A DNA stretch of 64,000 bases from Amphiscolops sp. MND2022 (taxonomy: Eukaryota), in NCBI GenBank assembly GCA_964187785.1, contig OZ076409.1, positions 4,528,001 through 4,592,000 of the forward strand, read 5' to 3'. Each line of letters starts with the position of its first letter. The stretch's first letter is position 1. Shown here piece by piece: positions 18,701-61,827 of this stretch. The notes under the pieces are model-generated. The model saw only the letters and a program-made list of their open reading frames with translations. It made no database searches and was not told where the DNA came from. A program made the translations under genes and the position numbers.

Positions 18701-21700
18701 TTGTGAGACTATTTTAAAATTTTTTCCTCCCAAGGGTACCCCCTTCAATTTCTTTGATATTTGATAATTTGCAACAGAATATATGTTAGTTTTTTCAAAC
18801 TTTTTAAAACGCTTTCTGAGCCTTAGATATAGCGCCGACTTTAGACGTTCTCGTCTTGTTTTAATTAAAGACAGACTCGAATGCCATGAAATTTTTGTTG
18901 GATGAACTAAAATTATACCTGGTAAACGCTTCTTTATTGCAAACGGCCCCCTTTCATTTTTTACTTTTTAAACGTAACATACAAAACCGGACGAGACTAA
19001 AGGACACTGTAGCGCAAAAGAAGCTACGTAATATCCGAATTGGCGCCGATAGCGAAAACGACGATTGAAATTTGCGCTTATCTGATTGATCGGAAATTTT
19101 TGCTATTTTGGTAAACAAAAGTGTCCAACTTTTACAGTGGCATGTATCTAAATTTCCAAAAGTTGTCAAGAAATTACAGCCTTTTACAACTTAAATTCGC
19201 GGAGCCAAAGTTTTCCAAAAAGCGCCGCTTAAGCGTTAGGGGGCCTGTCATAAGCGCAACAAGCGATAAGCGCGTTTTTGGTGAAACATGGTTCACTGCC
19301 TTCAACACAAAAACTTCAAATTTCTTAGTCTGCGTGCTTACGGGAGGTCTTTTGGGAGATGTTAACTTGTAGTTTTGAGGTTTTTCGCCTGATATTAGGT
19401 TTTCTCAATAGATTTCCACCAATAGTTTTTTTAATACTATCCGAATTTTGGAGGTGGAGGCTCGAAAGTATTGCGCTATATCCGAATTCTGGACGTTATA
19501 TCAGAACTATATTGCGTTTCACTGAGAAGGAGGCAGAAGGTCAAAACAAGCGCTCCCATTGTCCCAGCACGCTATATCCGAACTTCTGGAGCGCTCTCCG
19601 TTCACGAAAGGCACCCTTTGGGTGTTTCAAATCTGTTTTCTGGATTTTTCATAAAAACGTCCTGGGTATATTTTAAAAACTTTGCGCTTTTTTATCCTTG
19701 GATATAGCGCCGACTCGTCTTGTTCTCGTCTTGTTTCTTCAGACTACAATCCTCACACTGATCGGTCCACTTTTCAGAAACAATCCTGAAACCACCTGAG
19801 CACCTGAGGCCAAGTCCGGCCAAGGGAGACTTAGTCCAAAGGGTCCCCCTTTCATTTTTTCACTTTTTCAAGGAAACCTACAAAACCGGACGTGCCTAAA
19901 GGGTCCCCGCTTTGGATTTTTTTTCGGCACTGTGCGACTTTTTTTCGAAAAAAAAATTAATGTCTCAAAAGGGTCCCCCTTCGAGTTTTTTCATATTTTG
20001 CAACTGAATGTATGTTAATAAATCCCAAAGGGTCCCCCTTTTACATTTTTTGGCCCTATATGCAATTATAATGGCTGCAACTCTTTTCCAGGTCCCTTCA
20101 CACGCAGTAGCCAGGGAAGAACGCAGGAGCAGAGGGTGCAGTGAAGAAGCTCCCCCGCCGGTGCAGCCTAGAAGGAACTCCAATGCAGATGCCCCGCCCA
20201 TTCCCGCCCGCAGAACCAAACCACCCCCTGTGAATTTCCACAATGTCGATGCCCCCCGCAGTCACAACCACACAGTGCAGTTTCAAGTCCAGCAGAGGGG
20301 CGTCGTGCCGCCGCCTAGTCCGAGCTATGAAGGTAACAACAAGCATCTAATAGTTCTTCATTTTATTACAGTAAAACTCGGATAAAAGAAACACGTATGG
20401 CGGTAGGAAAAGAGTTTCTCTTATCCTTAGTTTCTTTTATCAGTTGTCCTATCAACGTAGAAAGTCTGTCTTGCATAAAAATGGAGGAGTGAAGACGTTT
20501 CTTATTTCCAAATGTTTGTTTCATCCGAGTTCAACTGATTTTTGAGAAAGCAGGAATAATATAGAAACTGGAAGGAAATTTTCTTTCAGCCGAGTTTGTT
20601 CCCTAATCGAGTACCGTATTTTTCCGCCTGTAAGGCGCGGCTTATAAGTTTATTTTTGGGAAAAAAGTGCGGCTTGTAGGCGGGGGCAGCGTATACGATT
20701 ATTTTTATCGATTCAATGCGGCTTATAGGCGGGAAAATACTGTACCTGCTGAAAGAGATTCAGATATTTTGCTCGGCAGTAAGTATAAACTGGAGATTTA
20801 AATTTCTCAAGCTGCCGACGACAGTTAGTCTATTCAATTCTCTCGCGATTAAACGAGCGAGTGTTAATTATTCGCTCGTCAAGAGCTTCGTCTGCATTTA
20901 AATGCAAATGCGAATCTTCGTATACGCTTGCTAGTAATGTTTTCGTTAGTTTTCTCAAGAAGAATTAAAGGCGGTGTAAACTTGTAGGTGCCTATTCATA
21001 CAGCCGAATTTACAAAATAGGTCTCAAACAGCAGAATTCAAATTACTAGCTTTCAGTGCTGTTACAGCCAATATGTAAGCAACTTGATTTGAAGAGTTTC
21101 GCACATTTGTTGTATGGCTCGGTCGCTTCGCCCCCTTCGCCAAGTAGCAACATTGAGGCGTATGGCACGTCGCTCCGCTTCGCTTCGCTTCTGCATTTAG
21201 GGCAATAGGGTATTTGAACATAGCTGACTACGTCATAATAATAATTCCGACAAAATCTGACACGCCTTTTCAGTTTAGTGAATTCAATTCGATTTCAAAT
21301 TTCAGCCAATCAGATTGCAGCATAGAGAAATATTCTGCTGTTTGAGACCAATTTTTCACTTTCTGTTGTTTGGGATTTCGGCTGTTTGGGAATTCCCCAA
21401 CTGGTACAATGATTAATTGTGCGCTAAATAATGATTAAATAGGAGTGTATTGGTATTCCAGACATGATTCTATTATTAATGAAAGATTAAAGCAGAAATA
21501 GTAATGTGCCCCGGAGGGGCCTATTTTCCCAAATATGAAATTTGAGCGGAAAATAGTCAATCAACCGCCGTGTTGAAAGCACTGCCATAGTGAAGGCAAA
21601 TAATGAAATGAATGGATTTGGAATGAAGTTTTCATCATTTGTGCAATATTTTTGTTTCAGTTGGTAAACATGGGAGAAACAAGGAGAACGTTTTAGGCCA

Positions 21701-27700: not shown

Positions 27701-30700
27701 GGAAAAGATCGCAATGTTTTTAATATTTCTGCTTTAGCAGGAATGTTATTGTAACCTCAAAGTTGGTCCTTTTTTTTCAGTCGTCAAATTTCGTCCTACT
27801 GAATAATTCAGATATTTTGTTCGGCAGTGAGTGTAAGCGTGGGAAAGCTGCCGACAACAATTCAATTCTAGTGCGATAGAACGAGCGAGTGGTAATTATC
27901 CATTCGTATGCTGACGTCATTGAGATGAAGCGAATGAGTGTTAATTATTCGTTCGTTGAGAGCTTCGCCTGCATTCAAATGCGAATGCGAAACTTCGTCT
28001 ACGCTTAGTTATATTTTCTTTAGTCCGAGAAGAATTAAAGGCGGTGTAAACTTGTACAGTGATTAATTGTGCTCTAAGTAATGATTAAACAGGAGTGTAT
28101 TGGTATTCCAGATATGATTCTTTTATTAATGATTTTTTGTTTTAAAAAAATAAAGATTAAAGCAGAAATAGTACTGAGCCCCGGAGGGGCCTATTTTTTG
28201 AATCTCAAATCATATTGTGGGCGATACAGAAATGGCTCATTCGGCTATTCCGCGTCTTATGCATCTTTCGTGTTTTCCTTTGCGAATGGATGGAGAAATT
28301 CCCATTAAAACAATTCGAATTTTGAAAGCAGATGAATAGGAAAAGCTTTTTAGAATACACGATGCAATGAAGTTTTCGAAGCGAACTTTCCTGTTTCTTA
28401 TAACATGCAAACGAACATGTCTTAGAGCTTGCGCTAAAGTTCAGAGTTGAAACGGTAAATATGGTAAATTCAAACTTTCTGGTTTTTATTCCGAATAAAT
28501 TCTGAATAATTCTAACTTTTTAAATATACAAAACACCATATATTTAACAACCCTGCTTATACGACGCGTTTTTTAGCTGTCATTCCATACTTAATGTACG
28601 GCTGTACACGCTTGCTCAAAAGCTCAATGTTTCCGGCTAATCGGTCCAATCGGCTGAAAACTTGTATCCGATTGACCTTTTGACCGCGTTGACCTCTAAA
28701 ATGTCTTGAGTGTTCTACTCCAGATTCAAGGTCAAAGTTTTTCAGGACCAATAAAAAGAATCAGCAAGACAACAAAGATGCCAATAGTGGTAACATTGTC
28801 AACAATTCCAGCGGCAATAGTCGATCTTCCAGCGCCCCCATGCGGCCTCAAAGTGCAATGCCTCCTTCTGCGCCCTCTACTGGATCAGCCAATAGGAAGA
28901 CGAGCTACCATCAGCCAATCCACGGCTTCCAAAGCGAGGAACCTGCCGCCATATTTGTCAGGTTAATAAAAAAACTTGAATTAACTAGGTTGACTAAACA
29001 CAGAGATGACCATAGCTTGAAATTCTATTATAGCAATGCTATATTAAACGTTATGTTATTAAAATGGCAGCATTTATTATAGCGGCTATAATATGAACAT
29101 ATATGGAATTTTTTATAATAGAATTCTATAATTGCCGCTATTATTGACCAATCATACCTCTCGATGAATAGAAGAATGAGAATTTTGCCTCGAAATTTGA
29201 AAACTAGACTCATCGTTGAATGTTATAATAATTAGTTCATGGTCTTCATTGTTTTGTTATTTTTTTTCGAAAAAAATTCAACTGTTTTCTCCTTAGCTGA
29301 CTACCCTAGATGGGCTCAAGGATTGAAGCTATAGTCATACTGCTGGATCTCCTGTATCTCTCGAAAATACTGACACAAAATATCAACTATGATTTCTTTG
29401 ACAAATTTAACTATTCAATGAACAACGAATATACTTATCACACGCGACTAGAACCCTATCATTTCTTGCAAGAAAAGAGGCCTCAACCCGCTACTGCAGA
29501 ACAAAATTTTTGGTTCCGAGCAAAACGTCTAGCCATGCAATTACCATCTTCAATTGACATTCGTGAATATGATACTCTAAAACCGAAGCTACTCTACTGG
29601 ATGTGGCGTGATTTTCATGACACCTTTGATGAGCTGAACACCTGCACTTGGAGAATGAAATGCGACTGTGTGACAAAAAATTACAGACTATTAAACAACT
29701 GAAACCCTGACTTTTCTACACGAGACTCTTATGTACTTCTGTAACAGACTACTGCTTCCAAAACAGAGTTGGACTTTGATAACTTCTAACTGAAGTTTCA
29801 AATTTACACTGAAATTTGTATAATAATACATCATGCTGTGTGCCACTTGATATATCTGGAAGGGGTTAAACCCCGTGTGGTGAAAACCACAGAATTCATA
29901 TTAATAATAATAATAATACCATTGACAAAAATTGGATCTATAATAGAATTCTTTTTATTTTTAGTTAATAGCAAAAGCTATAATAATTTCTATAATCAAT
30001 GATTGTAGGGTCATCTCTGAGTAAACATCATTCTAACTCAGAAGAGAAAATAACAAAACTTTTGCCCTATATGCAGAAGCGGATATCAATATCAATCAAT
30101 CATTCAGATGTAGTAATAATATGTATTTGAATTCATCTGATATGTGACCAAAGACAACCAAACAAAAGATTCAAGATTTAATAATCAAATACCAGAAAAG
30201 ACCTCCAATGGCCAGAGCCCGCTCAACGGAGGTCTAGTACAACTGAATCATTACAAAAACTTGAATGTCCTTTTTTAGTTTTTCTAATTTCAGGCTAAGA
30301 ATAACAGATAGAAATTTAATCAAAGTTATGTTTCAACAATTGACGTGAAAAATAGTTCGTTCAGCAGTTTGTGTTAGACCATTCTCACCCTTGAATACAA
30401 GGGACAAACTTGATGTTTTGATTTCATTTCATTCAAGAGATTTGTCAAAGCTTTGTATATAGGTTTCAGGTATTTTTCCGGGTATCTGACCCGCTATTAA
30501 TCCAGACAAAAATGTACCCGCTGGTAAGGGGCCAACAACCAATATTTTGAAGCATGAAAGAGTAACAAGACCGGAACGTCCAAGGTTGGCGCCATGTTTA
30601 AGGCACAAAAATATTCAAGGAACGGTTGGAAAGATTTGGAAAAAATTTTTTTTGAAAGTCGCTCAATGCTGAAAAACTCAAAAATTTCAAAGAAATGAAA

Positions 30701-33700
30701 GGGGTACCCTTTGATAGAATTCGAAAATGCAAAGAATGATTTCCATAAACAAGTTTGACATGGCTGAACATTTATTTGCATTTGTTTTCTGATTCTCTAG
30801 ACATGCATCGATTGACACGGGTGTCCACAGAGGTTTGCTTACTGTTGCATTGATGAGGATAAATAATTGTACATGTTCCCAATTCCGTGCCTTTTCTCCC
30901 AATTTCTTCCTTCTCCTAAAATTTCCTTATATGGCTAAAATTCATCCGGGCCCAAATTCACCAAATTATATATGTACGCAATCACCTGTGCGAATTGCAT
31001 AGACTGTCGGAATGAAGGTTACCTACTGTGTCGTTGCTTGTACCTCCTTTAGAGCAAAAACTCCTTTTTAGTTTGAATTCGTTTTGACATGAATCAGAAT
31101 TAGAATAGAGTTTTCCCTTAACTTGGCAATGCCGTTAGGCTTGAATTTTAGGTTTTTTTTCCGTTAAACTCTTCGAGGAAATCAAGAAATTCCATTATCT
31201 GAGACTGATTTCATCTGATACAAAATAGTTCGTTTAAAAGCCCAATGAATGAGTACGTCAAAGATCGTTTTCATTGTTTTTGACCTTCGAATCGAGACTA
31301 ATTTAATTCGAATCCTATCTTTATTTGCAAGAAGCTTTTCGCTTTTTTGTGCTTATCAAACTATCATTCAAGAGAAAAACAATAAAACTACAATCCCACA
31401 ATTGTACAACAATACATGTTACTCGTGTATATTTCAGCTTCTGTTAAGTAAAGCACTCAATCGCTTTGACTGAATGCCATGTGCTATTCCTGCATCCTTT
31501 AGCTTTGAATCAAAGGAAGGGTCCCAGCTTAAATTTTTTTTGATTCTAAGAAGAGACGAAATTTGGTTCATCATTTTGGATTCAAATCACCTTCGCTGTG
31601 TTTCTAACAGAGTCTTGACTCCGCTGATAAGCGAATTAGCGGCCGCCTGTATTTTTCAGCGATTTTATTAGCGATTCAAACTGCAAAGAAGTCTTGACTA
31701 GTTGATAATGTGTCGAAACGTGTTGTCTCGCTTCCGAAAAGTTTTCAAATGAGGCTAATAGCCAAAACTTTTCGGGAGCGAGACAACACGTTTCGACACA
31801 TTATCAACTAGTCAAGTTGTTACTCTGTTTCAATCAGAGTGGCTATTTGGTTATTTTTGTCGGCTACCAGACAAAAGCGCCCAAAATACACACTCAAAAG
31901 CGCCCCAGTGACGAGCGACCCAATCAAAGATTACAAGGGATATGCTGAATCCGTTGCATCAACTTTAAGTTCCTCGCTCTAATTAAATATTCGTCAGTTT
32001 TTCCTTTTAAAGCAACTCATTGGCTAATTGTTTCATTAGGAAATTGATGTAATTCCCTCAGTAATGCCGAAATTAGAAACTCAAGTTGTTTTCAATTCAA
32101 ATTGTGGTTGGCCGTGGGAACATGAAACCTGGCAATGCCATTGGAATATTATTTCATTTGAGCAATCTCAATTTGGCTTAATCAGAGGTTGGGAAGTTAG
32201 CTCGAAATTAGCCAGGCGTTTTGCCTTGGGCGCTTATGGCTGTATAAATGGGCTCCTTTGACGGGTGCTTTTGTCTTGTCACCAGGGTTTTGACATCGCT
32301 AATTTCGCTAAACCACTAATTTCAATTCGCTGAAAAAATTTTCCGTCAAACTGCTAGACGTTTGACTTCAAGTATGTTTCAAAATCAAATGATAACTTGC
32401 TTTAGTTTTTGCACGAAAAAGGAAAGAATTGAGTTTTTATTGTGTGTGGGTTTTACAAAGGTAAGTTTCGGAATTTTTCGAAATTCATTTTGAAACTCCA
32501 TGTATGCTCGAGGAAATTTTGAATTTGAATCGCTAATGAAATCGCTGAAAAATTCCTGCGCGGCCGCTGAACCGCTAATTAGTGGTGTCAAAACGCTGCT
32601 TGTCATTGTCGCCAATCCCTAATCAAACCATTGATCTCCTACATCATCTCCCTCCATCTAAGTTTGTTTGTTTTTGCTTTTCAGCCATGATAAGATGAGG
32701 GAAGCGCCCCCTGTCGCGCACAGAATGGGGGGTGGGGTTGTCACCCTGAATACCAACAACATGCACATAAACCCAACGGGAGTCACCGTCGCCCATCGAC
32801 ACTCTCCCCACAGAACTAATGCCTCGCCCTCTCACAGTCGAAACTCTTACCACTCCCCCATGAGTTCTGCCTCTCCCACTGACGATATACACAACCAGTG
32901 ATGATCATTTTTTTTATTTCTGCGACAGCAGGAATATTATTGAAATCTAACAATTTGACTTTTTTCACTTCAATTTTTGTCGTGATCTCGAGTACTTACT
33001 GAAAAGATAAGTGACTATAAGCGTGAGAATTAAATTTCTCAAGCTGCCGACGACATTCCAATTCTCGTGCGATGGAACGAGCGAGTGGTAATTATCCATT
33101 CGTATGCTGACGTCATTGAGATGAAGCGAGCGAATGTTCGTAATTGTGCTTTCGTTGCTCCGAGTTATTGAGATGAAGCGAATGAGTGTTAATTATTCGT
33201 TCGCCGAGAGCTTCGCCTGCACTCAATTGCGAATGCGAAACTTTATCTACACTTAGTAGTTTTCTTTTCTTTATAGTCCGAGAAAAATCAAAGGCGGTGT
33301 AAACTGGTAGTGATTAATTGTGCGCTATATAAATGATTAAGAAATGCTTCCATTATTGGAGATGAAAGCCTAAAAGCAGAAATAATACTGTGCACCGAAG
33401 GGGCCTATTTTCTCACTTTTTGATCCAGTACTTATAAGCTGGAACACAGCATTCCGATAAAAAACATCACCCGGGCCAAATTCCCCTTTATTTTCTCGAT
33501 TTTTTTCGGCACTGTGCGACTTTGATCTCTTTTCATCAAAGGCCCTCTGTTTCAGTAAATTTATTGCAGAAGGCTTTCAGTTGAGTCAGTTCTCCTGCTG
33601 ACGATAAACATAACCAGTGATGATCGTTTTGTCAATTTAGTGGGCACAGTATTGTTTTTTTAATGCGAAAATAATGAAAGCTCTGCGCGTACTGAATCCG

Positions 33701-36700
33701 AGAGAAAAGATTTTTTGCCTTTGTTACAAGGAGGGCGTGTCAGTGAAAAAGTAGTTTGGGCGTCGGTACGTAACATACGCAGAGTTGGAACCGGGTCATG
33801 ATTTTCTACCCGAAGCCCGGCCCGAGCCCGTTTCAAAAATCCTAACACGACCCGATATTTTTGAACATTTTCAATACCCGACGAAAATGCACGAAAACGA
33901 ATTTGATACCCGAAACTAAATTGTAAATGATAATCAGCTATAAGCATAATGAGAATTCAAAAATCCCAGTTTTTACAAAATTCAAAAACTCGACATCAAA
34001 CAGTTTTTGGCAGACATCTGGGCTCTACGAGCTGTGCGAATAAGACAAGCTTGATTAAAATTTTGTTAACTTTGAGCAACTAAAAGGAATCAATTGCGAA
34101 AATTATAGAGTCCAGGTTAATGTATAAATTTTGAATTTATTTTCCGAATTGTTATACCCGGCCCGGAAAAATTTAAGCTCGAAAAAGCCCGGTTATAAGC
34201 CCGCCCGGCAACATTTGATGACGTGCTTGGTTCCAACTCTGAATATACGTAATATATGTTTGAATGATCACCACTGTTTGTACCAGCCAGCTCAGCTACC
34301 ATTACCACCCCGGGGGGTACAACTCTGCCCGGTCGAGTGTGAGAAGAGACTCAAACTCCTCGAGCATTGGATCCGCTGCCCAGGTAGTGTAATAAACTGA
34401 ACATTTCCAAGACACAGAAATCAGTGTGTGATCGATTTAATAATTAGGAGTGGGAAAAAAATTTCGACAACTTATGCAATCGTACCTTTTTTCTCTCGAC
34501 CTTTCAATGAAAATTTCAAATTTCCTTGAAAACTGTACAAGCGTTTTTAATACAATTTCGCATAGCCATTCTACACCCAAAGATGTTCCTGTATGCGTAA
34601 TGGCATCAAAATCCTATGACTAAAATCTGAGAAACATAGCCAAAGTTAGTGCAAAATGGTCGTTTTTGACTTTTTTCAATTTTCTCAGAAACTGTGCACA
34701 CGATTCGAAAGAATTTTTTACCGCATTCTACATCATATTAGCGTCCTATGTGTGCAATGACATCAAAATCGTATGACTGGGATTTGAGAAACAGCCAAAC
34801 TTTGTCCAAAATGACTATAAAGTGCGTAATTTGTTTTCCAACTTTTCAATCCGTTTCCAACTTTCTTACTGCACATGCGGCTCTGGTTTAATTAATAGGG
34901 CCAAAATGTTTTTCAGGACATAAACATCTCTTGAGAGTAGCATTTAACTCCCATTTCTGACAGCCGGAAAAGCAGGTTAATCCTGTAGGCGAAGCCTGGG
35001 ATATAATCGCTCCAAAATTGTACCTGGACTTCAGATAGTGAAGTTTAAAAAATTGTTCCATGGAAACTAAAGAAATTAAAACTGAATTCGAAGTTTTTTC
35101 TTGCTATGTGTAGTGAAAACATGCGATTAACAAATGAACTAAACAAGCAATAAAAATGAATTTCTTGTTCTCAAATATCAACATTGTAGTATTACAATTC
35201 TTGTGAATTACTCACACCTTTAGTCTGAAATCGCCCTCTCGATGGTGTTGAACTGAAAATGGGAACGTGCGGGAATGATCCTTAGGCGAGGTTCAATGGA
35301 GGGAACACAGAGCTAAGTTTTTTCACCTCGAAATCTCAGTCAAAGCTTGCAAGAATCTTGAAAGATCCATACTTTTCTTGCAAAAATCTTGCCATTTCAA
35401 TCCTGCTTAGAAGAATCATTGCAAGAATAATGCATTGACTTTTTTCAAGAATTGTCTTTTTTTAACCTAGGGAACCAAAACTAAATATATGTTGATTGTA
35501 AATGTGCAAATTCAGTTTATAACACCACCCCTTCCAGGTATGCCAGTCTCATTCGCCCCTCGCTGAAACTGGCTTTCACCCTCCAGTATCTTCCCTGTCC
35601 ACAGAAAGTGGTGGTCGTGCCAGCAACGGCAGCAACGATGTCTCATCTGTGGCCGCCGCTGCAGCCTATTTCGACAGAGTCTATACCTCCAATCTCAACA
35701 ACCAGCCAACCCCCCATTATCAGCCCCGCAAACCTAGGTATGCCTGCTTATTCACCACGAAAAATCGCTTTTCTCTTTCGTCCTATGCAGTTTCAACCGT
35801 TGCCATTTCAACCGCTCGCAATTCCGACCTTAACTAATTTTTTTGGCTATTTCGTCTTAATTCGGTTGAGCTATTATTTCATCATAATAGTTGGTATTGA
35901 ATAAAACAGCCTTAATTATTGGTAATTATTCATGAAAAAGCCAAAATGTGTCAAAAATGGTGTAAAAAGTAAGCACATTTAGATTTAGAAATGTATGAAA
36001 ATGAAAACTACTTCAAATAATTTTATAACTAATAGGATCCATTAGCCAGAATTAGTATAAGTCGAAATTGCGGACGGTTGAAAATGCAACAGGTTGAAAT
36101 TGTGAGTGGTTGTAATGGCAGCGGTTGAAATTGCATAGGTTGAAAGTGTATAGGACGAAATGTCATGTAACTCTTTTGAAAGCGAGAATATTTTCTGGTT
36201 ACATGGTATTTCGTCCTTTGCCATTTCAACCGTTGACAATTTCAACCTATTGCATTTCCAACCTTCCGCAATTTCGATCTATTCAAATTTTGGCTAATTA
36301 CTCCTAATTCGGATAAGTTATTATTTCAGTACAATAGCTAGTAATATATCAAAGTGCTTTAAATATCGGTAATTATTCATGAAAAAGTCAAAATGTATCG
36401 AAACTAGCGTGAAAATTAACACGTTTGAAGATTAGGACATTGGATTGTCCAAATTCAAATATTCCTCAGAGTGTACATGGAGTTTCATAATGAAATTCAA
36501 AAATTCTATCTCTTACTTTTGTAAAACTCACACAGTATGAAAAACTATAGTCTTCTTGCAAAAATTGAATAAAGGCATGCTTGAATTTTTATATACTGTG
36601 GAATCCGCCTAATTCGTATCGCTAGGGACCGAATAACATTGTACGAATAATGAGAAATTTGAACAGATTTATTCGAATTAAAATTTAAGCGTGTGCCATT

Positions 36701-39646
36701 TAAGCGGCTTCCACTGTACAAGGTCGTTCTATTTTATGCGCATTTTCTGAAAAATATTTGCTGCTAAATCACTGGTGGTATGTAATTTTCGATTAATTCA
36801 GCATTCTTGTTAGCCGTGGAAAGGTAAATAAAAACGCCCCGAGGCCTCCCCTCAGTGAGGGCACAGTGGCTATGCACCCGGTCGCCAAAACCAACACTTA
36901 CGGTATAGGTAGGTGACCTTTTGACCTGGTTGCGACCTCTTTTGCCAAATCCAGAGGCTCTTTTCTGTTAACACCCCCCCCCCCCCATCAAAATTTATTT
37001 TTTGATGGAAAATTACGAAAAAAATTCAAACTGGTTGAATTTAATGTGAAGTTTTTCCCATAACAGGAAGTTAACTTCTATTGGAATAGTTTTTCATTTG
37101 AACAAACTATTTTTCACGCATTTTGACTGTGAATATGTTGAAAATTAACTGTTTTCAGTGACTCAAAACAGGAAACTGTTGAGTTTTCAACAAGAATATT
37201 TGACTTCTTAAGGAATTATAGCGTGAACAAAGTTTGTATCTGAATTCTAAACTGTCATTCTGAGAAAGTAAAGGTTTCTAATTTAGTTCCAAGTCTATTG
37301 TATTTTAATATTTTCACAAAAAATTTTCAAAAATAAGGTGGTGGGGGTGGAAACAGAAAAGAAACCAATCCAGGCAATCTTCATTGTGTGATACTGTGCA
37401 CTGTGTCATTCATTGTCACTAATTCATCTCCTAATAGTTGATAAAATATCAATCATCCAGTGAGATTCCTTACATCACAGATTTTTCGTGTTTCTTGTGA
37501 ATCATCTTCATTTAGAATGTTCGAATGAAACAAAATCGAAGGTTTTTTGAAGCCGCGTATTTGGAAGGTGCATGTGATTACCAAGATATTAACAATCATT
37601 CGCGTATGTATTTAATGAATAGCTTCAGTCGGTGCTTTTATAGGCAAGTGTTTTGTGGGACCACTGACCTCACACTGAATCGTCCACTTTTTACAGTTCT
37701 AATTGGCACCCAAGGGGACATTCCCGTAGAGGCTTTCACAATATTTACAGAATACTCGAAACTATTTGAGACCAAAGAGCCCTCTGAGGGATTTTCGGCC
37801 TATTTTTTGCTTTTTTGATGTTTTTAGAGAAAGTCGTTTTCTGAGTATGAAAGGCCCCCTTTGGGTATTTTCGGAACTCTTATATCCTTATAATATTGAG
37901 CTCTTACATTGAAAAAACCCTGAGCTTATTTTTGAAACTTTGCGCTTTTTGAGCTTTAAGCGGGGCGCCGACTTGAGAATGAATAATGTGAAATTTATTT
38001 CTAATAACCATCCTTTAATGTCATGTGTTCGCATGTTCAACTTTTTTAGGAGTCGGAAAAAATTTTCGACTAATGCAATCGTGTCGTTTTTTTGTTTTTT
38101 TTTCTCCCGACCTTTCATTAAAATTTCAAATTTCTCAAAAACTGTCCATATGATTTTCATAAAATTTTGCACTCATTTTACACCCAAAAGGGCCCCTGCA
38201 TGCGCAAAGGTGTCAAAATCGTATGACGAATGTGAGAAACATAGCCAAAATTAGCCCAAAAACGGTCATTTTCGACTTTTTTTGATTTTCTCAAAAACTG
38301 TCCATACGATTCGAACGAAATTTTCTACAGTCATTCTACACCATATTATGGTCCTTTGTGTGCAATTTCACAAGTTTGCATGACTGGGATTCGAGCGAGT
38401 CGGAAGAAAAAAGACCTAAGCCGACTCCTTTACCGCATATGCGGCTCTGATTTTCCAAGTCTGTTGGAAATTAACTTTCAAACACACCGAATCGATGTCT
38501 ATTCAGACAACTTCCGGGTATCGCTCCAAAGGGTCACCCATCAATTTTTTGATATTTTGCAACAGAATGGATGTTCAAAAAATCCCAAAGGGTCCCCCTT
38601 TTACATTTTTACATTTTTCGGCACTATGCGACTTACCGGAAACTTCAAAAAAATTTTAAAATTTTTTTCCTGAATTTTTAGTTGAGCTTTTGTTTTCTCC
38701 AGTTGTGGAAAAAGTGGTCTTGGAGTCTTATTGAGCCTTAGATATGGCGCCGACTTGGGCCGTTCCCGGCTTGTTCGACTTGAAATGTCCATTTTTCAGT
38801 CAAAGTCTCCCGAGGTCAGCGAATGACCCTGGGGGTCGACAACACTGGCGGTCAACAGAAGAAGGACATGGAAATTCCATGGAAAGGCGGTCTCCCAGGT
38901 TCCTGTCTGTCATTCATTGAATTGTTGAGTGTTTCAGGGCCAGTCTGGGTATGATAATGGGTTTCGGGAAGTCCTCCAACAAAAACAGCAGTTACGCAAC
39001 TCTTCCCAATCACCCCAACATCAAGTTCAAGTCTAAACAACACAACAACAACAACCTAGACAAGCGAAACTCCGCCAGTTCATACCAGCTGAACTCTTCG
39101 TGCAACGACGACGTCTTCACACAGTCCATCGACGAAAACATCTTCCACCACAAATCCGACTCTTCGTACCCGACAGGCTCCAAGTATGACGTAAGATACG
39201 ATGACGTCATTAAGTACGATGACATAACCTACCATGACGTCAGGAAGTATGACGTAAGAAGCGATGCCGAGTCGGGAGACCAAAGTGACAAAAGTTGGTC
39301 TCCCATGAAAGAAAACGTCACCTATGGAACCCATATGTCTACATTTTATGATTCAGCAAACACTTACCAAAGCCTGCCTCGGAAAAGAATTCCCTCGGAA
39401 CCCCCGGACTCGAAAGTGAAATCGAAAAATCGGTACGTTAAAAACGGCGGCAGAAAATCAACAGCGTTGGACCATCATCGCCGGAGTTCCGAAATTAGAA
39501 GCGATTCCTCTGAGTTTGAAGACTCGAGGAGAGATTATGGAAGTGATGGTCCCCCCACTTATGGTGCTATCGGAGCCAAAAACCCCGTTTCGGAATACTC
39601 CCTCGGAAGTCATAGCAGCGAAGCAGTTCTGTTGGGCGATTATTGA
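558..39646 (+). CDS. par-3: Par-3/Bazooka (PARD3-like) PDZ polarity scaffold, 5'-partial multi-exon gene (span)
   Basis: Phase-compatible GT-AG exons: 558-721, 6148-6429, 6884-7015, 7418-7533, 10255-10434, 10758-10849, (11359-11423 or 17444-17637), 20092-20332, 21661-21787, 22921-23016, 28746-28961, 32685-32897, 34287-34383, 35538-35737, 36814-36912, 38938-39646. Par-3 hallmarks appear in the expected order: PDZ3 start IPLNDTGSAGLGISVKG, AFSREDIHRRSLSEKR, KSASLESL, RSRGCSE, GIFRGLFR. Exons after about 22.9 kb rest only on phase, splice signals and composition. Confidence 0.9.
1107..1269. mobile_element. pogo/Tigger-like MITE
   Basis: TA-flanked TIRs CAGTAAACCCTCGATTATCCGCCA. Similar TA-flanked MITEs at about 5475-5631, 10870-11046, 20594-20742, 23645-23800 and 36596-36716. 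Confidence 0.75.
1537..2064. mobile_element. hAT-like MITE (CAGAGATGACC family)
   Basis: Flanked by direct repeat GGCTGACTT; sister copy at 29001-30019. Confidence 0.75.
2354..2790 (-). mobile_element. Helentron-like family A copy
   Basis: Reverse-complement of the 21864-22224 architecture. Confidence 0.7.
4292..4566. mobile_element. hAT-like MITE, CAGAGTTTTGACA family
   Basis: TIRs TAGAATTTTGACA / TGTCAAAACTCTG; TSD ATTTCTTC/ATGTCTTC; internal similarity to 10438-10752. Confidence 0.8.
6027..6098 (+). pseudogene. tRNA-derived sequence (Ala-like), not a functional tRNA
   Basis: A box TGGCGCAGTTGG and B box GGTTCGAACCC; acceptor and anticodon stems do not pair. The copy at 42180-42251 differs in the anticodon loop. 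Confidence 0.6.
6148..6429 (+). CDS. par-3: par-3 exon, linker and N-terminal half of PDZ3
   Basis: TTTTAG acceptor, phase 0; VIPLNDTGSAGLGISVKGRT...DTGVFIKAILNGGAAWK; donor GTATAG. Confidence 0.95.
6884..7015 (+). CDS. par-3: par-3 exon, PDZ3 continued
   Basis: DGRLLVNDQLLSVNEQSLVGMDNKDAIEVLKNSLIHHGKTGQAN; TTTTAG acceptor, GTGAGT donor. Confidence 0.92.
7418..7533 (+). CDS. par-3: par-3 exon, last PDZ3 strand and linker
   Basis: TTTTAG acceptor; FRVTISRLDS...; phase-2 donor AG|GTCAGA. An alternative phase-2 donor AA|GTTAAT at 7510 is possible. Confidence 0.75.
9783..10073 (+). mobile_element. Helentron-like family E carrying an antisense tRNA-like segment
   Basis: subTIRs CAC(A/T)TGACGAAG / CTTCGTCATGTG, hairpin GCGAAGCACCGCTTCGC; second copy at 60810-61783. 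Confidence 0.7.
9884..9953 (-). pseudogene. tRNA-derived sequence
   Basis: Reverse complement has TGGCACAGTGG (A box) and GGTTCGAATCT (B box); copy at about 60912-60981. Confidence 0.55.
10255..10434 (+). CDS. par-3: par-3 exon, first half of aPKC-binding region
   Basis: TTTTTCAG acceptor, phase 2; ends ...PDGTAFSREDIHR(R); donor AG|GTCCAG. Confidence 0.85.
10438..10752. mobile_element. hAT-like MITE (CAGAGTTTTGACA family) forming a par-3 intron
   Basis: TIRs CAGACTTTTGACATCG / CGGTGTCAAAACTG; 8-bp TSD CGAAGGTC/CAAAGGTC. Confidence 0.88.
10758..10849 (+). CDS. par-3: par-3 exon, second half of aPKC-binding region
   Basis: (R)SLSEKRTGGRVRDANELAFYREKIKPMKDA completes the Par-3 RQSMSEKR-type motif; acceptor CAAAG, donor GTGAGT. 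Confidence 0.85.
11359..11741 (+). CDS. par-3: par-3 alternative exon (short form 11359-11423, or read-through terminal exon to TAG 11741)
   Basis: Phase-1 acceptor TGCAG. A consensus donor GTAAGT lies at 11424, but the frame stays open and GC-rich to ...QPQPGYYSM*. Confidence 0.6.
11790..12887. mobile_element. CAGTGATGATCATT-TIR element
   Basis: TIRs CAGTGATGATCATT / AATGATCATCACTG; TSD TTTCATTC/TTTTACTC. Confidence 0.65.
13782..14177. mobile_element. GG..CC-terminated MITE (Merlin/MULE-like) with shared core
   Basis: Inverted TTCAATTCGTCGAACA repeats; TSD TAGAAAAA/AAGAAAAA. Confidence 0.65.
15075..15452. mobile_element. GG..CC-terminated MITE with shared core
   Basis: Inverted GGGACAAAACAGCCG repeats; perfect TSD TTTAAATT. 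Confidence 0.7.
16139..16836. mobile_element. hAT-like MITE with nested TTAA-flanked (piggyBac-like) MITE at about 16243-16609
   Basis: TIRs CAGGGCTGTCGGCGG / CCGCCGACAGCCCTA; TSD ATCGGGAT/ATCGGAAT. Confidence 0.75.
17444..17637 (+). CDS. par-3: par-3 exon with KSASLESL (Par-1/14-3-3 site-like) motif
   Basis: TTTCAG acceptor, phase 1; DRYKSASLESLTHL resembles Par-3 KKSSSLESLQT; donor CAG|GTGAGT. Confidence 0.85.
17774..18419 (+). mobile_element. Helentron-like family B, nested in a family A copy, with an internal ~173-bp tandem duplication
   Basis: subTIRs AGGAGTCGG / CCGACTCCT, then hairpin CCGCACATGCGG. Other copies at about 24133-24397, 34444-34889 and 38042-38452. Confidence 0.7.
20092..20332 (+). 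CDS. par-3: par-3 exon
   Basis: CTCTTTTCCAG acceptor; RRSRGCSEE resembles Par-3 RGRGCNES; Pro-rich; donor AG|GTAACA, phase 1. Confidence 0.8.
20987..21398. mobile_element. GG..CC-terminated MITE with shared core, inserted in a family C element
   Basis: TSD AACTTGTA/AACTGGTA; inverted ACAGCCGAA repeats. Confidence 0.65.
21661..21787 (+). CDS. par-3: par-3 exon with basic/amphipathic motif
   Basis: TTTGTTTCAG acceptor; ...KDNKKNKSSGGGIFRGLFR resembles Par-3 KKGMLKGLGDMFRFGK; donor GTGAGC. Confidence 0.8.
21864..22224 (+). mobile_element. Helentron/DINE-1-like non-autonomous element, family A (representative)
   Basis: 5' subTIR TTAGTCGGCGC, 3' subTIR GCGCCGACT followed by a short stem-loop and TGTT. 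T-rich target with no TSD; internal AAAGGGTCCCCC repeats. Most abundant repeat in the window. Confidence 0.75.
22921..23016 (+). CDS. par-3: par-3 probable symmetric cassette exon (96 nt)
   Basis: GC-rich island, phase 2-2, PTSDLDSPIMRPRSPSSTQRRLRPPPSGSGLR; donor GTTTGT. Confidence 0.55.
26466..26767. repeat. near-perfect direct tandem duplication (about 147-bp unit)
   Basis: TCTCGTAAATGCATAATATC...GAATTGAAACT at 26466-26612 and 26621-26767. Confidence 0.85.
28746..28961 (+). CDS. par-3: par-3 exon
   Basis: TTTTTCAG acceptor, 216 nt, phase 2-2, open (TNKKNQQDNKDANSG...EEPAAIFV); donor AG|GTTAAT. Confidence 0.7.
29001..30019. mobile_element. hAT-like MITE (CAGAGATGACC family) interrupted by a LINE fragment
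   Basis: TIRs CAGAGATGACC / GGTCATCTCTG; TSD ACTAAACA/AGTAAACA. Confidence 0.8.
29340..29918 (+). mobile_element. 5'-truncated LINE (CR1/L2-like) 3' end with (TAA)n tail, inserted in a hAT-like MITE
   Basis: ORF remnant LLDLLYLSKI...NFWFRAKRLAMQLP...NTCTW...CDC, followed by a TAA-repeat tail. It is absent from the sister MITE copy at 1537-2064. Confidence 0.65.
31693..31816. repeat. near-perfect hairpin/palindrome
   Basis: About 53-bp arms CTTGACTAGTTGATAATGTGTCGAAACGTGTTGTCTCGC...AAAAGTTTT and reverse complement, short loop. Confidence 0.85.
32283..32598. mobile_element. hAT-like MITE, CAGAGTTTTGACA family
   Basis: TIRs CAGGGTTTTGACA / TGTCAAAACGCTG; TSD CTTGTCAC/CTTGTCAT. Partial copies start at 23126 and about 31609. 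Confidence 0.8.
32685..32897 (+). CDS. par-3: par-3 exon (donor supplied by a TIR)
   Basis: Strong acceptor TTTTTGCTTTTCAG; open to ...SPTDDIHN. The phase-2 donor CA|GTGATG sits just before an in-frame TGA and matches the phase of the next exon. Confidence 0.7.
32896..34276. mobile_element. CAGTGATGATCATT-TIR element forming a par-3 intron, with nested insertions
   Basis: TIRs match 13/14. It contains a family-C Helentron-like copy (about 32915-33410) and a hAT-like MITE at 33780-34241 (TSD AACATACG/AATATACG). Confidence 0.7.
34287..34383 (+). CDS. par-3: par-3 exon
   Basis: TTTGTACCAG acceptor; QLSYHYHPGGYNSARSSVRRDSNSSSIGSAAQ; donor CAG|GTAGTG. Confidence 0.7.
34385..35527. mobile_element. 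TAGTG-TIR (hAT-like) element forming a par-3 intron
   Basis: TIRs TAGTGTAATAAACTGAA / TTCAGTTTATAACACCA (15/17); nested family-B Helentron-like copy at about 34444-34889. Confidence 0.7.
35538..35737 (+). CDS. par-3: par-3 exon
   Basis: CCCCTTCCAG acceptor; VCQSHSPLAETGFHPP...HYQPRKP; donor AG|GTATGC, phase 2. Confidence 0.7.
36814..36912 (+). CDS. par-3: par-3 probable exon (99 nt, phase 2-2)
   Basis: TTCTTGTTAG acceptor; RGKVNKNAPRPPLSEGTVAMHPVAKTNTYGIG. Several adjacent GT donors make the 3' boundary uncertain; read-through gives an immediate TGA. Confidence 0.5.
38772..38899 (+). repeat. exact intragenic copy of the par-3 acceptor and first 100 nt of exon 10255
   Basis: Identical by eye to 10227-10354; preceded by a related but diverged family A repeat end. 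Confidence 0.9.
38938..39646 (+). CDS. par-3: par-3 probable terminal exon
   Basis: GTTTCAG acceptor in phase 2 leads into the 231-aa ORF 38951-39646 (Ser/Asp/Tyr-rich, low complexity). Assignment to par-3 is by position and phase only. Confidence 0.6.
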
Positions 39647-44629: not shown

Positions 44630-45854
44630 CAGTATGGTTCCAAAATGTTGAATACGGCTTTCAAAGCTGAAGAAATTTTCAAATTTTCTTTGCTAACAAA
44701 AATGCGTGAAATCATTTCACTTGTTTCAACGTTAAAACATAGTCGGAAATGCCAGCACCATTAGATTCTTTTATTGCTTGTCAAATTGTTACGTTGAAAA
44801 AGAGGATTTTCGTATCAGAAAATTGCAGATGAATTAGGTTTGAAAGCCAAGTCAACGGCCCAATCAGTTTTTAGGCGTTACAACAAAAACAAAAGTTATT
44901 TACCAAAACAATCCACTGGTCGTCCTCCAGAGTTATCGGAAAAAAACTAAAGAAAATTGGTCAAAGATGTTCTCAAAGATCCCAAAACAACTCTGGAGAG
45001 AATTCGGGTTAAATACAATTCCTTTTCGACCAAATAATCAATTTCGAGAACAACTGTGAGAAGAATATTGAGAAAACATGGCGTTTTTAGCAGAGTTGCG
45101 GCCGAAAAGATCCGCATCAAAAAAACGTCTGCTGCTTTTCGGAAAAATTGGTCACAAAAAATCATTGAAAAATCAGCTGAATATTGGTATTCTGTAGTGT
45201 TCACTGATGAAACACGAGTGAAGCTCACAAGTGACGGAATTGTTCGTGTTTTTCGCAAAAAAAAACACTCGTTATGTGCAAAATAAACGTCAAATATGTG
45301 ATAACTGACAGACGATCGCTGATATTTTGGGGTGCAATTCGATCGGATGGCCGGAAAATGTTGGTTAAATGCCCCAATACCCTAACAAGCAGCAGTTATC
45401 TTGATATTCTGAAAGATTACAACAACAAATTGCATTTTCCGGGCTTAGTTTTTCACCAAGACAACGCGCCCACTCATAAAGCTTCAATTATCAAGAATTT
45501 TTCCGCGAAATTGAATGGGAAGTACTGGATTGGCCACCATACAGCCCTGATCTGAATATTATTGAGAACCTTTGGGCAATTGTGAAGAAAAGATTGGCAA
45601 AACAAAGTGTTTCATGGGAGAATATAGAGGAAAAAGTGCAAGAAATTTAGAATTCGATCGAGTTAGAGACTGTTCAAAAACTTTATGACAGCATTCCCGA
45701 GCGCCTAGAAGCAGTTGCTTCTAGTAATGGATTCATTTCCCGATTTTGAAATAGTTGCTTTGATATGATTTCTTTGTCTTATGTTTAGTTCATGTTGAAT
45801 TTTCCGTTTTTAAAAAAACAGGTTTGCCGTATTCAACATTTTGGAACCATACTG
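44630..45854 (+). mobile_element. Tc1-family (DD34E) transposon, full length with disrupted transposase
   Basis: TA-flanked TIRs CAGTATGGTTCCAAAATGTTGAATACGGC. ATG at 44749; motifs STGRPP, VVFTDET, FHQDNAPTH, WPPYSPDLNIIENLW; frameshifts and a premature TAG at 45648. Confidence 0.93.
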
Positions 45855-48813: not shown

Positions 48814-51800
48814 ATGTCTGCCCCCCAATCATCGACCACCACGATCGACTATGAGACAGTGTGCACCATCAAAGATGACGTTCTGTCCAAGGTTGTTATG
48901 TTTAAAGCAAGCTGTTCTAAACCAGCTTGAAAAAAACTGTTTAAAACACAAACACTTTTGAAAAACACATTGTTTTTCATATTTTTTAAAGCAAAGGGCC
49001 CACCCTTTTCGGCATGTTATGTTTTTTGTCATGTTGTGTTTTTTCATTTGTTTTATAACAGCACAAAAATCTGTTAGCGGTGGAGATAGCTTGCAAACTG
49101 TGTTTTCTGTACCGAGAACCAACTCGATAATTTGATCTTACAATACTGTGATTCTTCCTGAAATTTGAAATGAAAAATTTATTTGGAAATTTGTTTTTTT
49201 TGATATAGCAAAAATCAGATGAAAAAACAATAAACAAAAAAGACTTTTCGAAAAAAAACATGTTTAATTGTATAAAATGAAAACAATTGTATAAAAATAT
49301 AGCAACCCTGGTTCTGTCCAGATGGGCGACTACCGGCCGGAGATTGGCATCATTCTGGGCTCTGGGTTGGGGGGTCTGGGTGAACACATTGAGAAGCCAG
49401 TGTTCATAGACTACAAGGACATCAAGGGGTTCCCCAGTTCCACCGTTGTCGGCCATAAAGGTTCCTTTCTCCCGTGCAAAGTTATTGAAATGAATGTTCA
49501 TTAAAAAAAGAAAAAAATGGAAAAAATTGGCTCTTCTGGACGCAAGGGTTCAGTAGCTCAACATTTTCATATTTGATGGGGGATCGCACTGATTGTTCCT
49601 TTTTGACGAGAAAAGATCAATATTTCAGTGTATTGAAGCGATAAAGCGACGGGGTTTCCCCAAAAAAAGCGCATGAGCGCTTTTTGAATTGATATTTTGT
49701 ATCAATTTGTTTTCAAAATATCACTTTTTATTAGGCCAAGTAGTCTGTGAACTTCTTTTATTGTCGTCCTAAGAAATCTAAAAGTGGTTTTAATTATATT
49801 TTTTTCAGACTTTGTTGATTTCACGTTTCGTTTAAAGTACACTTCACGAAATTGACTGACAATGTTTTTTGAATGAGCGTATTAGCGGCCTAAGCGGAAA
49901 GTGCCGACGAAATAAGCGCAAGCGCTCAAAAGTGCAAACTTCGTAAGCGATCAATACACTGCAATATTTCCACAGTGTTGTCTTTGTTTCCGGTTTTGAA
50001 AAAGCAGCGGTTTCCAGCACTGATTTATTTATTGTATAGCGCGGCTTGAGTATTTGGATCTGTCGAAAATACCTCGCTTTGCAATGGGGCGCTTTAGCCT
50101 TCTTATAAAGAAACGCGCGTTTCTTTATAAATAAGTTACAAAAACTTCGGCAAATGGAGGCATGTGTCAAGGGTGTGCGTTCATTTCACCCCACATTGTA
50201 ATCATACAAAAGCGTCTCGCCGTAATTAACGACTAAAATTTATTGCCTACTGTCTAAATTGTCAGGTTCTGACCATACGTGATTAATAAAACTGAATACG
50301 TAAATTTTTGCTGAAGATTCGCAGCATCCATAGTTGAAGATTTGATTACGCAACGAGAGCTCCTTTCTGAACGATTGACAGAAACGCTGATCTTTTTCAG
50401 CGTCGTGTTCAGAAATTTTACAATTCCGATTAGTGAAACTTTTGGGTTCCGTTTTCGTAGTTCACATAGCAAGAGCATCGTTTGATTATCTAATTATTAT
50501 TTCTGCTTTAGCAGGAATATTATTGAAATCTCAAAATGTCTACTTTTTTTCAGTACAATTCTTGGCACGATACTGAATAATTCAGATATTTTGTTCGGCA
50601 GTGACTGTAAGCGTGAGAATTAAATTTCTCAAGCTGCCGACCAAAATTCAATTCTCGTGCGATGGAACGAGCGAGTGGTAATTATGCATTCGTAAGCTGA
50701 CGTCATTGAGATGAAGCGAGCGAACGTTCGTAATTGTGCTTTCGTTGCGACGAGTTATTGAGATGAAGCGAATGAGTGTTAATTATACTTTCGCGGAGAG
50801 CTTCGCCTGCATTCAAATATATATTTGCTTTAGTCCGAGATTTACTACTATTAGTACTAAAAGACTGAATTGATTCTAGTCAGAAATTGATTCTAGAAAA
50901 AAATACTTGATGATATTTACATGTACAGATTTTTTAACAACAGTTTTAAAGGCGGTATAAACTAGTACAGTGCTTAATTGTGCGCCAAATAATGATTTAA
51001 CAGGAGTGTATTGGTATTCCAGATATGATTCTATTATTAATGAAAGATTAAAGCAGAAATAATAGTGTGCCCCGGAGGGGCCTATTTTTGGTAATTAGGT
51101 TCAAGACGTTTTTCTTTTAGCGCTAAGATCGAAAATGTGTGACTAGTCATTAATCTGAGGCAAACATTTGATAATTTCAATGTGGTGTGAAATGAACGGG
51201 GGGCGGGGGGGGGGGGGTTGAAATGAACGGGGAAGTGAAATTATAGTGAACCGTCTTAAGAACTAAAACATGGAAATACTGTTTTAAAAGATACAATTCT
51301 AGATTATGATCAATAGAGGTGCACCGAACTGGAAAATTTTCGTCCGGCCGGACAACCGGATGACAAAATTGATCCGGATATCGCCGGACCATACTTTATC
51401 CTCAACTATAAGCGATGAAAGACTGTTTTCAGAATTGGGCAATGAGTATGACGAAAAGCTAAGTAAACATTTGCTCCAAAGTGGGGGAAAATATTCCACT
51501 TTTTCTTCAACATCATAATGACTGCTGTAATCGAGAAATGAATATTTAAAGTGGCAATAAATGCGTGAGTGTCGAATTCCGGGTTTTAATCTGAAATATG
51601 CGATCATTTGTATAGATATATTTGTCCGGCCGGATTCCGTCAAAAGTCCGACCGAGCGGGATATTTTTTCGAACCCCGGCGGGATATCGGATCAGACTTG
51701 ATGTCCGGATATCGGACCGGACTTGATGTCCGGATATCGGACCGGACTTGATATCCAGATATCGGACCGGACTTATGTCCGGATATCGGACCGGACTTGA

Positions 51801-60418: not shown

Positions 60419-61827
60419 TAGGGCTGTGCAATTAACCCACCGAAATCGATTAACCGACCGAAGTTTTCAATAACCGAAACCGACCGACTTATCATATAAT
60501 CGACTTCGGTTAATTCTTTCAACCAATTAGGATGAAAAAATTTCTTTCAAATTGCATTAAAAAAACATAAATTATAAAGAATAAAACCGATTCAGTGCTT
60601 GAATTGCGTGATTGATTAACGACCACTTGGAATATCAGCTACAGCAGCTCCTAGCGAACGACATTAGGCCGATTCAGGCAACATTATCACTACGCGAAGA
60701 GAATCTCTAAGCCCAGAAACTTTCTGCAAACTTGCTTTGAGTAAATTGTTCAAAAATGAAGTTGAAATTTACCAACTCACACGTTTTTTTTTAATAAATA
60801 ACCGACCGATTTTTGCACATGACGAAGTCAATGTGCATTGCAGTCCAGCTAAGCAAGTTTTTTTCCACTATAGTCAACTTCATAATGAGCGCTTTTTAGA
60901 ATAAAGCCAAAACCCCAGAGAGATTCGAACCTGCAGCCTCCCGGTTGCACGGCCTAAGTGTTGACCACTGTGCCATAGGGATGTTATTGAACAAAGTTGA
61001 ACTGTTGAATATATACGCATGCGATTAAAATACTATATACAGTGGTGTGAAGAATGAATGCGACTTAGTTGCTCAGAATGCAAAGAATTCTCTAATCTGA
61101 TTGGTTCACAAAGCTTCGCTACTCAAATCTCATTGGTTTAACGAGCCTCGATCTCTCGCAAAAATCAGTATTTTCAATTGTTTACCGTCTTTTGGGGATA
61201 CTTTTTACATGAAAATTATACCAAAAAATTTCTCTGATTTTTCTCAATCCCATGATAGTTTTTGTTTGTGGAAATCACCAAGAAAACAAAAATGGGAGCA
61301 CTTTTTCGTTAAGTGAAATTAAAAGTACATGTAGTAAGATAGAAATTTCAGTCTTACACTTGGTAAAACTCCCACCAATATACATTTTACCAAATATATC
61401 CAACATCAAATTTTATCTTCGTTTTCGAGAGATTTGAGTGTATCTGCAATACAAAATTTATCAAAAAATATTTATTGAGTCACTGATATTTTCCCCAAAA
61501 TTAGCAATTTCAACTATTTTCCTCCAAAATCACATGTTTCTAACTTCGGACACAATGATGGTTGAAATTTCAAACAAAAACTATTGTAATCATAGCAAAA
61601 TTCAAGAAACTTTTGTTTTTACCAAATTGAACCATTTCGAATAGTTTTGGAGATATGATACTGCAAAATTAGCCTTCTTGAGCAACTAAGTCGCATTCTT
61701 TCTTCACACCACTGTATATACGCATATTAAAATAATCGATGTCTTCGTCATGTGTTGCGAAGCACCGCTTCGCCTCTGTGTTTAAATAATCGACCGAATT
61801 CAAAAAGACGATAATTGCACAGCCCTA
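60419..61827. mobile_element. hAT-like element with two nested insertions
   Basis: TIRs TAGGGCTGTGCAATTA / TAATTGCACAGCCCTA; TSD CCGGCAGG/CCGGCACG. Confidence 0.85.
61040..61714. mobile_element. Tc1/mariner-type MITE
   Basis: TA-flanked TIRs CAGTGGTGTGAAGAA...GCGACTTAGTTGCTCA; absent from the sister host element at 9783-10073. Confidence 0.85.

Follow-up and report, generated by a model that had tools for sequence, protein, structure and literature searches.

The locus raises the question of whether a stretch of an acoel par-3 gene that is now split into three exons was once continuous, and of what kind of DNA came to lie between the second and the third of them. The preliminary description of the 64-kb window (the whole stretch of DNA analyzed, from Amphiscolops sp. 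MND2022) proposed that 32685-35737 had been a single exon and that its middle portion is now flanked by two introns born from transposable elements. The features concerned are as follows.

32685-32897, plus strand: par-3 exon A, 213 nt, with a 5' boundary that agrees with relatives
34287-34383, plus strand: par-3 exon B, 97 nt, between introns A and B
34384-35537, plus strand: intron B, GT..AG, 1154 nt, predicted, absent in two relatives
35538-35737, plus strand: par-3 exon C, 200 nt, with a 3' boundary that agrees with relatives

The par-3 gene and the orthologous site in relatives

The 3' part of par-3 lies on the plus strand at about 558-39646, and judged by its sequence the gene is acoel par-3: the PDZ exon (6256-6429) matches proteins of Convolutriloba macropyga (78%) and Symsagittifera roscoffensis (74%), both of which carry PF12053 and PDZ domains, as well as an ENA protein (89%). 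The DNA accordingly comes from an acoel close to these species. Exons were placed by homology and splice signals, and an alternative exon near 22920 was excluded from the model; the 15 par-3 exons joined in this way (A, B, and C included) form one continuous frame that meets its sole stop at the end. The purine nucleoside phosphorylase (PNP) gene, at about 49300-57465, has four exons and an open frame, and the two genes together provide the set of 17 introns compared below, 14 of which belong to par-3. In addition, 38610-38899 is near-identical to 10074-10354, which comprises the end of the upstream intron and the first 99 nt of the exon at 10255-10434. The copy at 38610-38899 sits about 38 nt ahead of the last exon's acceptor and may represent an in-frame cassette exon, if a weak donor is used, or an assembly artefact.

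For the relatives, the evidence is at the protein level, from open reading frames (ORFs) predicted on genomic contigs. When exon A was used as a HMMER query, the single match was P0039, an ORF of a close relative located on a 111,774-bp ENA contig. The counterparts of exons A, B, and C follow one another along P0039 in a single frame, with both junctions unbroken and each part beating 1000 of 1000 shuffles; exactly where exon C gives way to its donor in the window, P0039 turns to unrelated, intron-like sequence. Intron-like read-through at junctions common to the window was also observed in P0001 and P0037, whose contig likewise measures 111,774 bp. These shared run-outs point to an intron-bearing gene rather than a retrocopy, and the relative's par-3 is likely to be such a gene. 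In S. roscoffensis, genomic ORF P0031 spans residues 1621-1766 of the RefSeq protein unbroken, starting at the boundary of exon A and ending at the end of exon C, and the short isoforms of S. roscoffensis and C. macropyga diverge at the exon A boundary. Because P0031 resembles the joined exons only weakly in sequence (its score was equalled in 19 of 1000 shuffles), this ORF counts by virtue of its boundaries. No C. macropyga genomic ORF was retrieved for the exon A-C region, a word-index search with exon C produced no candidate, and a metagenome scan with P0037 yielded 314 pattern matches, none of them confirmed.

The comparison of exon structure in related species that had been suggested as a check thus found intron B absent at the orthologous site in both relatives compared, and the proposed single exon is borne out by P0039, unbroken over A, B, and C, and by P0031, unbroken between the same boundaries. 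One gain is favored because it is simpler than two losses. An ancestral intron that was lost in the relatives and later filled end to end by a transposon is extremely unlikely: this history can appeal to an absence shown in two lineages only, but it would require two independent precise losses (the PDZ-exon matches are 89% for the closer relative and 74% for S. roscoffensis), and the same double losses again for introns A and X (described below).

Elsewhere in par-3, intron E8/E9 (17638-20091) seems to be absent in S. roscoffensis, according to a loose alignment with P0028; it has a 6-nt CCAG|GT repeat at both ends and no terminal inverted repeat (TIR), and it is maybe an older gain. As a seemingly lineage-specific intron without TIRs, it suggests that not every gain here displays a transposon. 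The ends of ORFs P0030, P0034, and P0026, set against those of P0018, P0028, and P0014, suggest that some par-3 introns of S. roscoffensis are missing in C. macropyga and vice versa, so that introns confined to one lineage may be frequent among these acoels.

Inverted ends and proposed target duplication of intron B

Intron B opens as TGCCCAG|GTAGTGTAATAAACTGAA, with the donor GT at 34384-34385, and closes as TTCAGTTTATAACACCA-CCC-CTTCCAG|G, with the acceptor AG at 35536-35537. Two inverted arms lie at its ends.

34385-34401, plus strand: left inverted-repeat arm of intron B, 15/17, in the preferred reading a remnant without its outer bases
35511-35533, minus strand: right inverted-repeat arm of intron B, read on the minus strand as AAGGGGTGGTGTTATAAACTGAA, one base off a YAGGG-type hAT terminus

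The inverted match between 34385-34401 and 35511-35527 extends over 15 of 17 bases (17 of 19 when lengthened by two), and the arms begin 1 nt past the donor G and 10 nt short of the acceptor end. The letters at 34377-35538, motifs and 15/17 TIRs alike, are as previously described, and only 1 of 4000 random GT..AG pairs drawn from the window equalled this match. Across the 17 introns, the best 14-mer inverted match near the intron ends was 13 for A, 13 for B, and 12 for X, with 11 in one A/T-run case and at most 10 in the rest. Among 272 mismatched pairs of real intron ends, none reached 13/14 and two reached 12/14. End repeats of at least 12/14 were present in only 3 of the 17 introns (X, A, and B), all three of which are absent in relatives, and no inverted ends were found at the three PNP introns. 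The inverted repeat at the ends of intron B is genuine. As had been proposed, the 97-nt exon at 34287-34383 would be flanked by two putative transposon-born introns; both have 13/14 ends and both are absent in relatives, and a transposon origin is likely.

Splicing of intron B is predicted from frame and homology: its removal restores the reading frame, and the 15-exon model is open end to end. The acceptor tract contains 8 C in 12, contributed by the C-run of the right arm, compared with 0 to 4 at other acceptors. An in-frame alternative acceptor at 35546 is hardly set apart by homology scores (132 versus 134), and 35517-35537 was rejected as an exon start, given that this frame stops after 16 codons and the other frame matches P0039. 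The same 9-mer spans AG|GT at 35536-35544, at the start of exon C, and at 35736-35744, after exon C, and the exon C start is a perfect donor that resembles recursive splice sites. Inefficient splicing would turn the insertion into a disrupted allele or yield a C-terminally truncated protein, with a stop two codons into the insert, and such an outcome would suit the low-complexity C-terminal region of par-3 and the truncated isoforms of relatives that end near here. We regard it as very unlikely, however, considering that exon C and the last exon are still open and carry motifs common to relatives, that the insert is old enough to hold a nested repeat about 20 to 28% diverged from its relatives, and that GT and AG are canonical and the removal exact.

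The position of the target duplication (TSD) was the part of the preliminary description that fared less well. It had let the donor GT straddle the junction of TSD and TIR, with one base from each, and had seen a degenerate second TSD copy, with three extra C, at the acceptor. The letters of that copy are present (TGCCCAGG versus CTTCCAGG, 5/8, three extra C), but the match does not rise above background: because CAG|G is the splice consensus, ordinary introns score 5/8 or better in this register, and 4 of the 14 non-TIR introns do so (5/8 at E8/E9 and E6/E7, 6/8 at E12/A, and 7/8 at E10/E12). A shifted register gives the following pair.

34380-34387, plus strand: left copy of the proposed 8-bp target duplication, CCAG|GTAG, containing the donor
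35534-35541, plus strand: right copy of the proposed 8-bp target duplication, CCAG|GTAT, containing the acceptor

These copies agree at 7/8 and share an exact 7-nt repeat. Of the 17 introns, B and X have the longest exact repeats that span the splice sites in register, both of this length; a repeat of at least 7 nt was found in 1 of the 272 mismatched pairs. One non-TIR intron out of 14, E10/E12, likewise shows a 7/8 in-register repeat, although in a different register, a chance 9-nt repeat connects the exon C donor with the intron B acceptor, and the 7/8 repeat at intron B is not flush with the left arm. In the shifted register, the right end of the element is AAGGGG, one change from a YAG-type motif and one base from the YAGGG of neighbors at 16139 and 60419 and of hATm (PMC6004678), and the left end carries no motif; in the earlier register the ends are TAGTG and TGGTG.

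The earlier register supposes a hAT-like element, TAGTG...CAC(T>C)A, whose right TSD decayed toward pyrimidines and acquired three C via slippage. Its 15/17 arms open with TAG, a terminus found on the local elements at 60419 and 4292, excision of the element plus 8 nt is equally exact, and the extra bases sit within a C-run. Nevertheless, this account is unsupported in detail and unlikely, as it calls for about six changes (two in the TIR, three in the TSD, and one 3-nt insertion), has a 5/8 match that is equalled or beaten in the four ordinary introns above, and leaves unaccounted for the GTA common downstream of both splice sites. The shifted register is preferred because it needs about three changes, including a single 9-nt deletion at the left, and it would explain both the donor-like GTATG at the exon C start and the C-rich acceptor tract; the choice of register is a parsimony argument, short of proof.

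Other assignments of the ends were also considered for intron B. An element starting with GG and having a 7- or 9-bp TSD was dropped after comparison by eye (4/7 and 3/9). Tc1/mariner elements duplicate a TA target, and CACTA (En/Spm) elements have a 3-bp TSD. Intron B has no TA flanks, such as those seen at the window element 61040-61714, and Tc1/mariner was rejected. A CACTA origin was rejected as well, in that the TIR core of such elements starts with CACT(A/G), according to the available text of PMC1636069, and the arms of intron B have the opposite polarity, with TAGTG on the left.

Related introns, local elements, and the origin of intron B

Introns X and A and several elements in the window bear on where intron B came from.

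4292-4566, plus strand: second full non-exonic copy of the intron-X family, in intronic DNA, TSD 7/8
10435-10757, plus strand: intron X, a third, clearer case, with a 315-nt element at 10438-10752 and TSD CGAAG|GTC / CAAAG|GTC, 7/8
11790-12887, plus strand: non-exonic element with the TIR of intron A, TIR 14/14, TSD 6/8
32283-32598, plus strand: full-length non-exonic copy of the intron-X family, TSD 7/8
32898-34286, plus strand: intron A, with an element at 32896-34276 and 13/14 TIRs (CAGTGATGATCATT), absent in relatives
34444-34891, plus strand: dispersed repeat nested in intron B, about 448 nt, 72 to 81% like copies at 17778, 38046, 24152, and 8124

Intron X is the strongest of the three putative transposon-born cases. 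Both of its splice sites fall inside its duplication, it interrupts a conserved FSREDIHRRSLSEKRT motif that is intact in P0037 and in S. roscoffensis ORF P0036, and its family includes fragments in the window besides the two full copies. In intron A, the donor CA|GT lies inside the TIR and the acceptor AG just beyond a decayed 8-nt target copy (3/8), and by arithmetic on the sequence an 8-nt duplication would leave the mRNA length exact. No internal similarity was found between intron A and the element at 11790-12887, and introns X, A, and B are unlike one another when compared within the window. It is likely that par-3 gained two further introns from two other element families: X, with a TSD that supplies donor and acceptor alike, and A, with a donor from the TIR and an acceptor from the exon.

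Eight YAG-terminal TIR pairs with TSDs of at least 6/8 occur in the window, five or six of them 7/8 or otherwise clear, and such elements are therefore common there. More elements with a YAG terminus and a 7/8 TSD are located at 16139-16836, 29001-30019, 33780-34241 (nested in intron A), and 60419-61827, the last of which harbors the nested TA-flanked TIR element at 61040-61714. Moreover, both CAGTGATGATC-TIR elements have their left end and flanking host DNA duplicated nearby (33591-33638 versus 32872-32919, 83%; 9032-9331 versus 11744-12050, 80%), possibly through alternative transposition, and the copy at 33591-33638 could form an in-frame 27-nt mini-exon.

The family searches for intron B itself were less productive. 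Other elements with its TIR had been suggested as a check, and no second copy of its ends was found within the 64-kb window; a search there for YAGGGGTGGTGT gave 4 matches versus 2.8 expected, of which only intron B itself was convincing. The right-end motif had no exact match in JGI metagenome contigs (a weak test), Rfam gave no matches on 32600-35800, and Pfam and transposase searches of 6 of the 22 listed frames overlapping intron B gave none. No hAT domain was detected in the 18 window frames scanned, which contained only the Tc1/mariner-like transposase fragments at 45038-45552 (PF01498 and PF13358, below the cut-off). The repeats at 32908-33418 (in intron A) and 34444-34891 (in intron B) belong to two families, each with about five further copies in the window. 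Both have T-rich flanks, a hairpin at the 3' end, and inverted repeats in subterminal position, and are Helentron-like by these features. The repeat in intron B was likely inserted after the intron B element.

Intron gain without a transposon, through tandem duplication or break repair at AGGT, would have to leave the inverted ends to a later insertion or to chance. Both processes yield AG|GT direct repeats, as set out in the portion of PMC3443670 available, the window holds no family copy of intron B, and E8/E9 looks like a gain without TIRs. We nonetheless consider this route quite improbable, given that the inverted arms lie at most 11 nt from both splice sites (1/4000 by chance), that no exon-like duplicate was seen inside intron B, and that two neighboring gained introns bear TIRs that recur in the window.

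Intron B is best read as the product of a transposon, and in either register such an origin is likely; we lean, less firmly, toward a non-autonomous hAT-type element in an AGGT site, with the splice sites within its 8-bp TSD. In this scenario, a non-autonomous hAT-type DNA transposon would have inserted at an AGGT-containing site in the par-3 exon, duplicating 8 bp, and the spliceosome would find its donor in the left copy and its acceptor in the right one, so that the element and exactly one copy are removed. The left end would later have lost about 9 nt, the last base of the right end would have changed, and the nested repeat would have entered afterwards. We infer that a hAT transposase was responsible for the cut-and-paste insertion, and likewise that the intron is spliced in vivo.

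Implications and comparison with known systems

By a hand estimate, about 0.14% of random insertions are expected to land in this way (with 8.5% of the gene span exonic, an AGGT frequency of 0.33% per base, and 5 registers), and two such landings are observed versus six intact non-exonic copies in the gene span, suggesting very fast turnover or target preference. It is conceivable, although we would hold it only tentatively, that several ordinary hAT MITE families are simultaneously supplying this acoel lineage with new introns across the genome, fast enough for 3 of the 14 par-3 introns in the window to be transposon-born. If so, introner searches that need many similar introns would miss such gain, because there are few introns per family, the majority of copies lie outside exons, and nested repeats accumulate in the introns. 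Clear transposon-made introns are scarce in animals, and this route to new introns is rarely reported; here, one conserved polarity gene has three probable cases, with two routes of splice-site recruitment and with relatives without the introns. The series from well preserved (X) to decayed (A and B) shows how fast the traces fade and suggests that many unexplained intron gains are old transposons. Acoels, with several sequenced genomes, offer a place to count the hAT share of intron gain directly.

Introners are lineage-specific introns made by DNA transposons with TIRs and TSDs, as presented in the available parts of 10.1101/2022.06.06.494994 and PMC12130899. Their splice sites come both from the TSD, or one is carried and one co-opted, and within animals and land plants the 2022 survey recorded just two groups with them, both animals (10.1101/2022.06.06.494994, available text). 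According to the same partial texts, introner families consist of many similar introns, from 5 to over 2000 copies. The par-3 introns share with introners the TIRs, the proposed TSDs, a likely DNA-transposon origin, the lineage-specific sites, and the same recruitment of splice sites, whereas they come from different families, the copies seen are non-exonic and 67 to 78% alike, and two of the introns hold nested repeats. Acoel names were not found in the text of PMC12130899 or in 12 of its 14 supplements, and files 13 and 14 and the bioRxiv supplements may list acoels. The terms searched in the accessible text of two acoel genome papers (PMC9911081 and PMC10565955) gave no passage on transposon-born introns, and our literature searches did not find an acoel report of such introns.

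In the tunicate Fritillaria borealis and in euglenids, species-specific introns with TIRs and TSDs are thought to be MITE derived (PMC11282704, available text). The acoel introns resemble them in their TIRs, proposed TSDs, and likely origin, but the former mostly have non-canonical ends and the latter canonical GT-AG. MITEs of the hAT superfamily have 8-bp TSDs, a PF05699 transposase in autonomous partners, and, in hATm, TAGGGTG termini (PMC6004678, available text). The proposed 8-bp TSD, the short TIRs, the YAG(G/T)G-type termini on neighboring elements, and the non-coding content all resemble hAT MITEs; in contrast, intron B is without the left terminal motif, which it lost or never had, and the window yielded neither a hAT transposase (18 frames scanned) nor a second copy of its ends.

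Intron B would work like a hAT-born intron, for which maize Ds provides the counterpart. Giroux et al. 1994 reportedly described a Ds case in which transposon insertion gave an intron. Ds belongs to the hAT elements and makes 8-bp TSDs, and PMC3443670 states the model in which an intron is gained when a transposon inserts into AGGT. As in that model and in Ds, the par-3 case would involve a proto-splice AGGT site, a duplication that gives donor and acceptor, and an unchanged coding sequence. Unlike them, the par-3 events appear to be fixed in a wild animal, to number three in one gene, and to derive from three families, and have relatives without the introns, with splicing predicted. The mechanism is already known, and the lineage apparently new.
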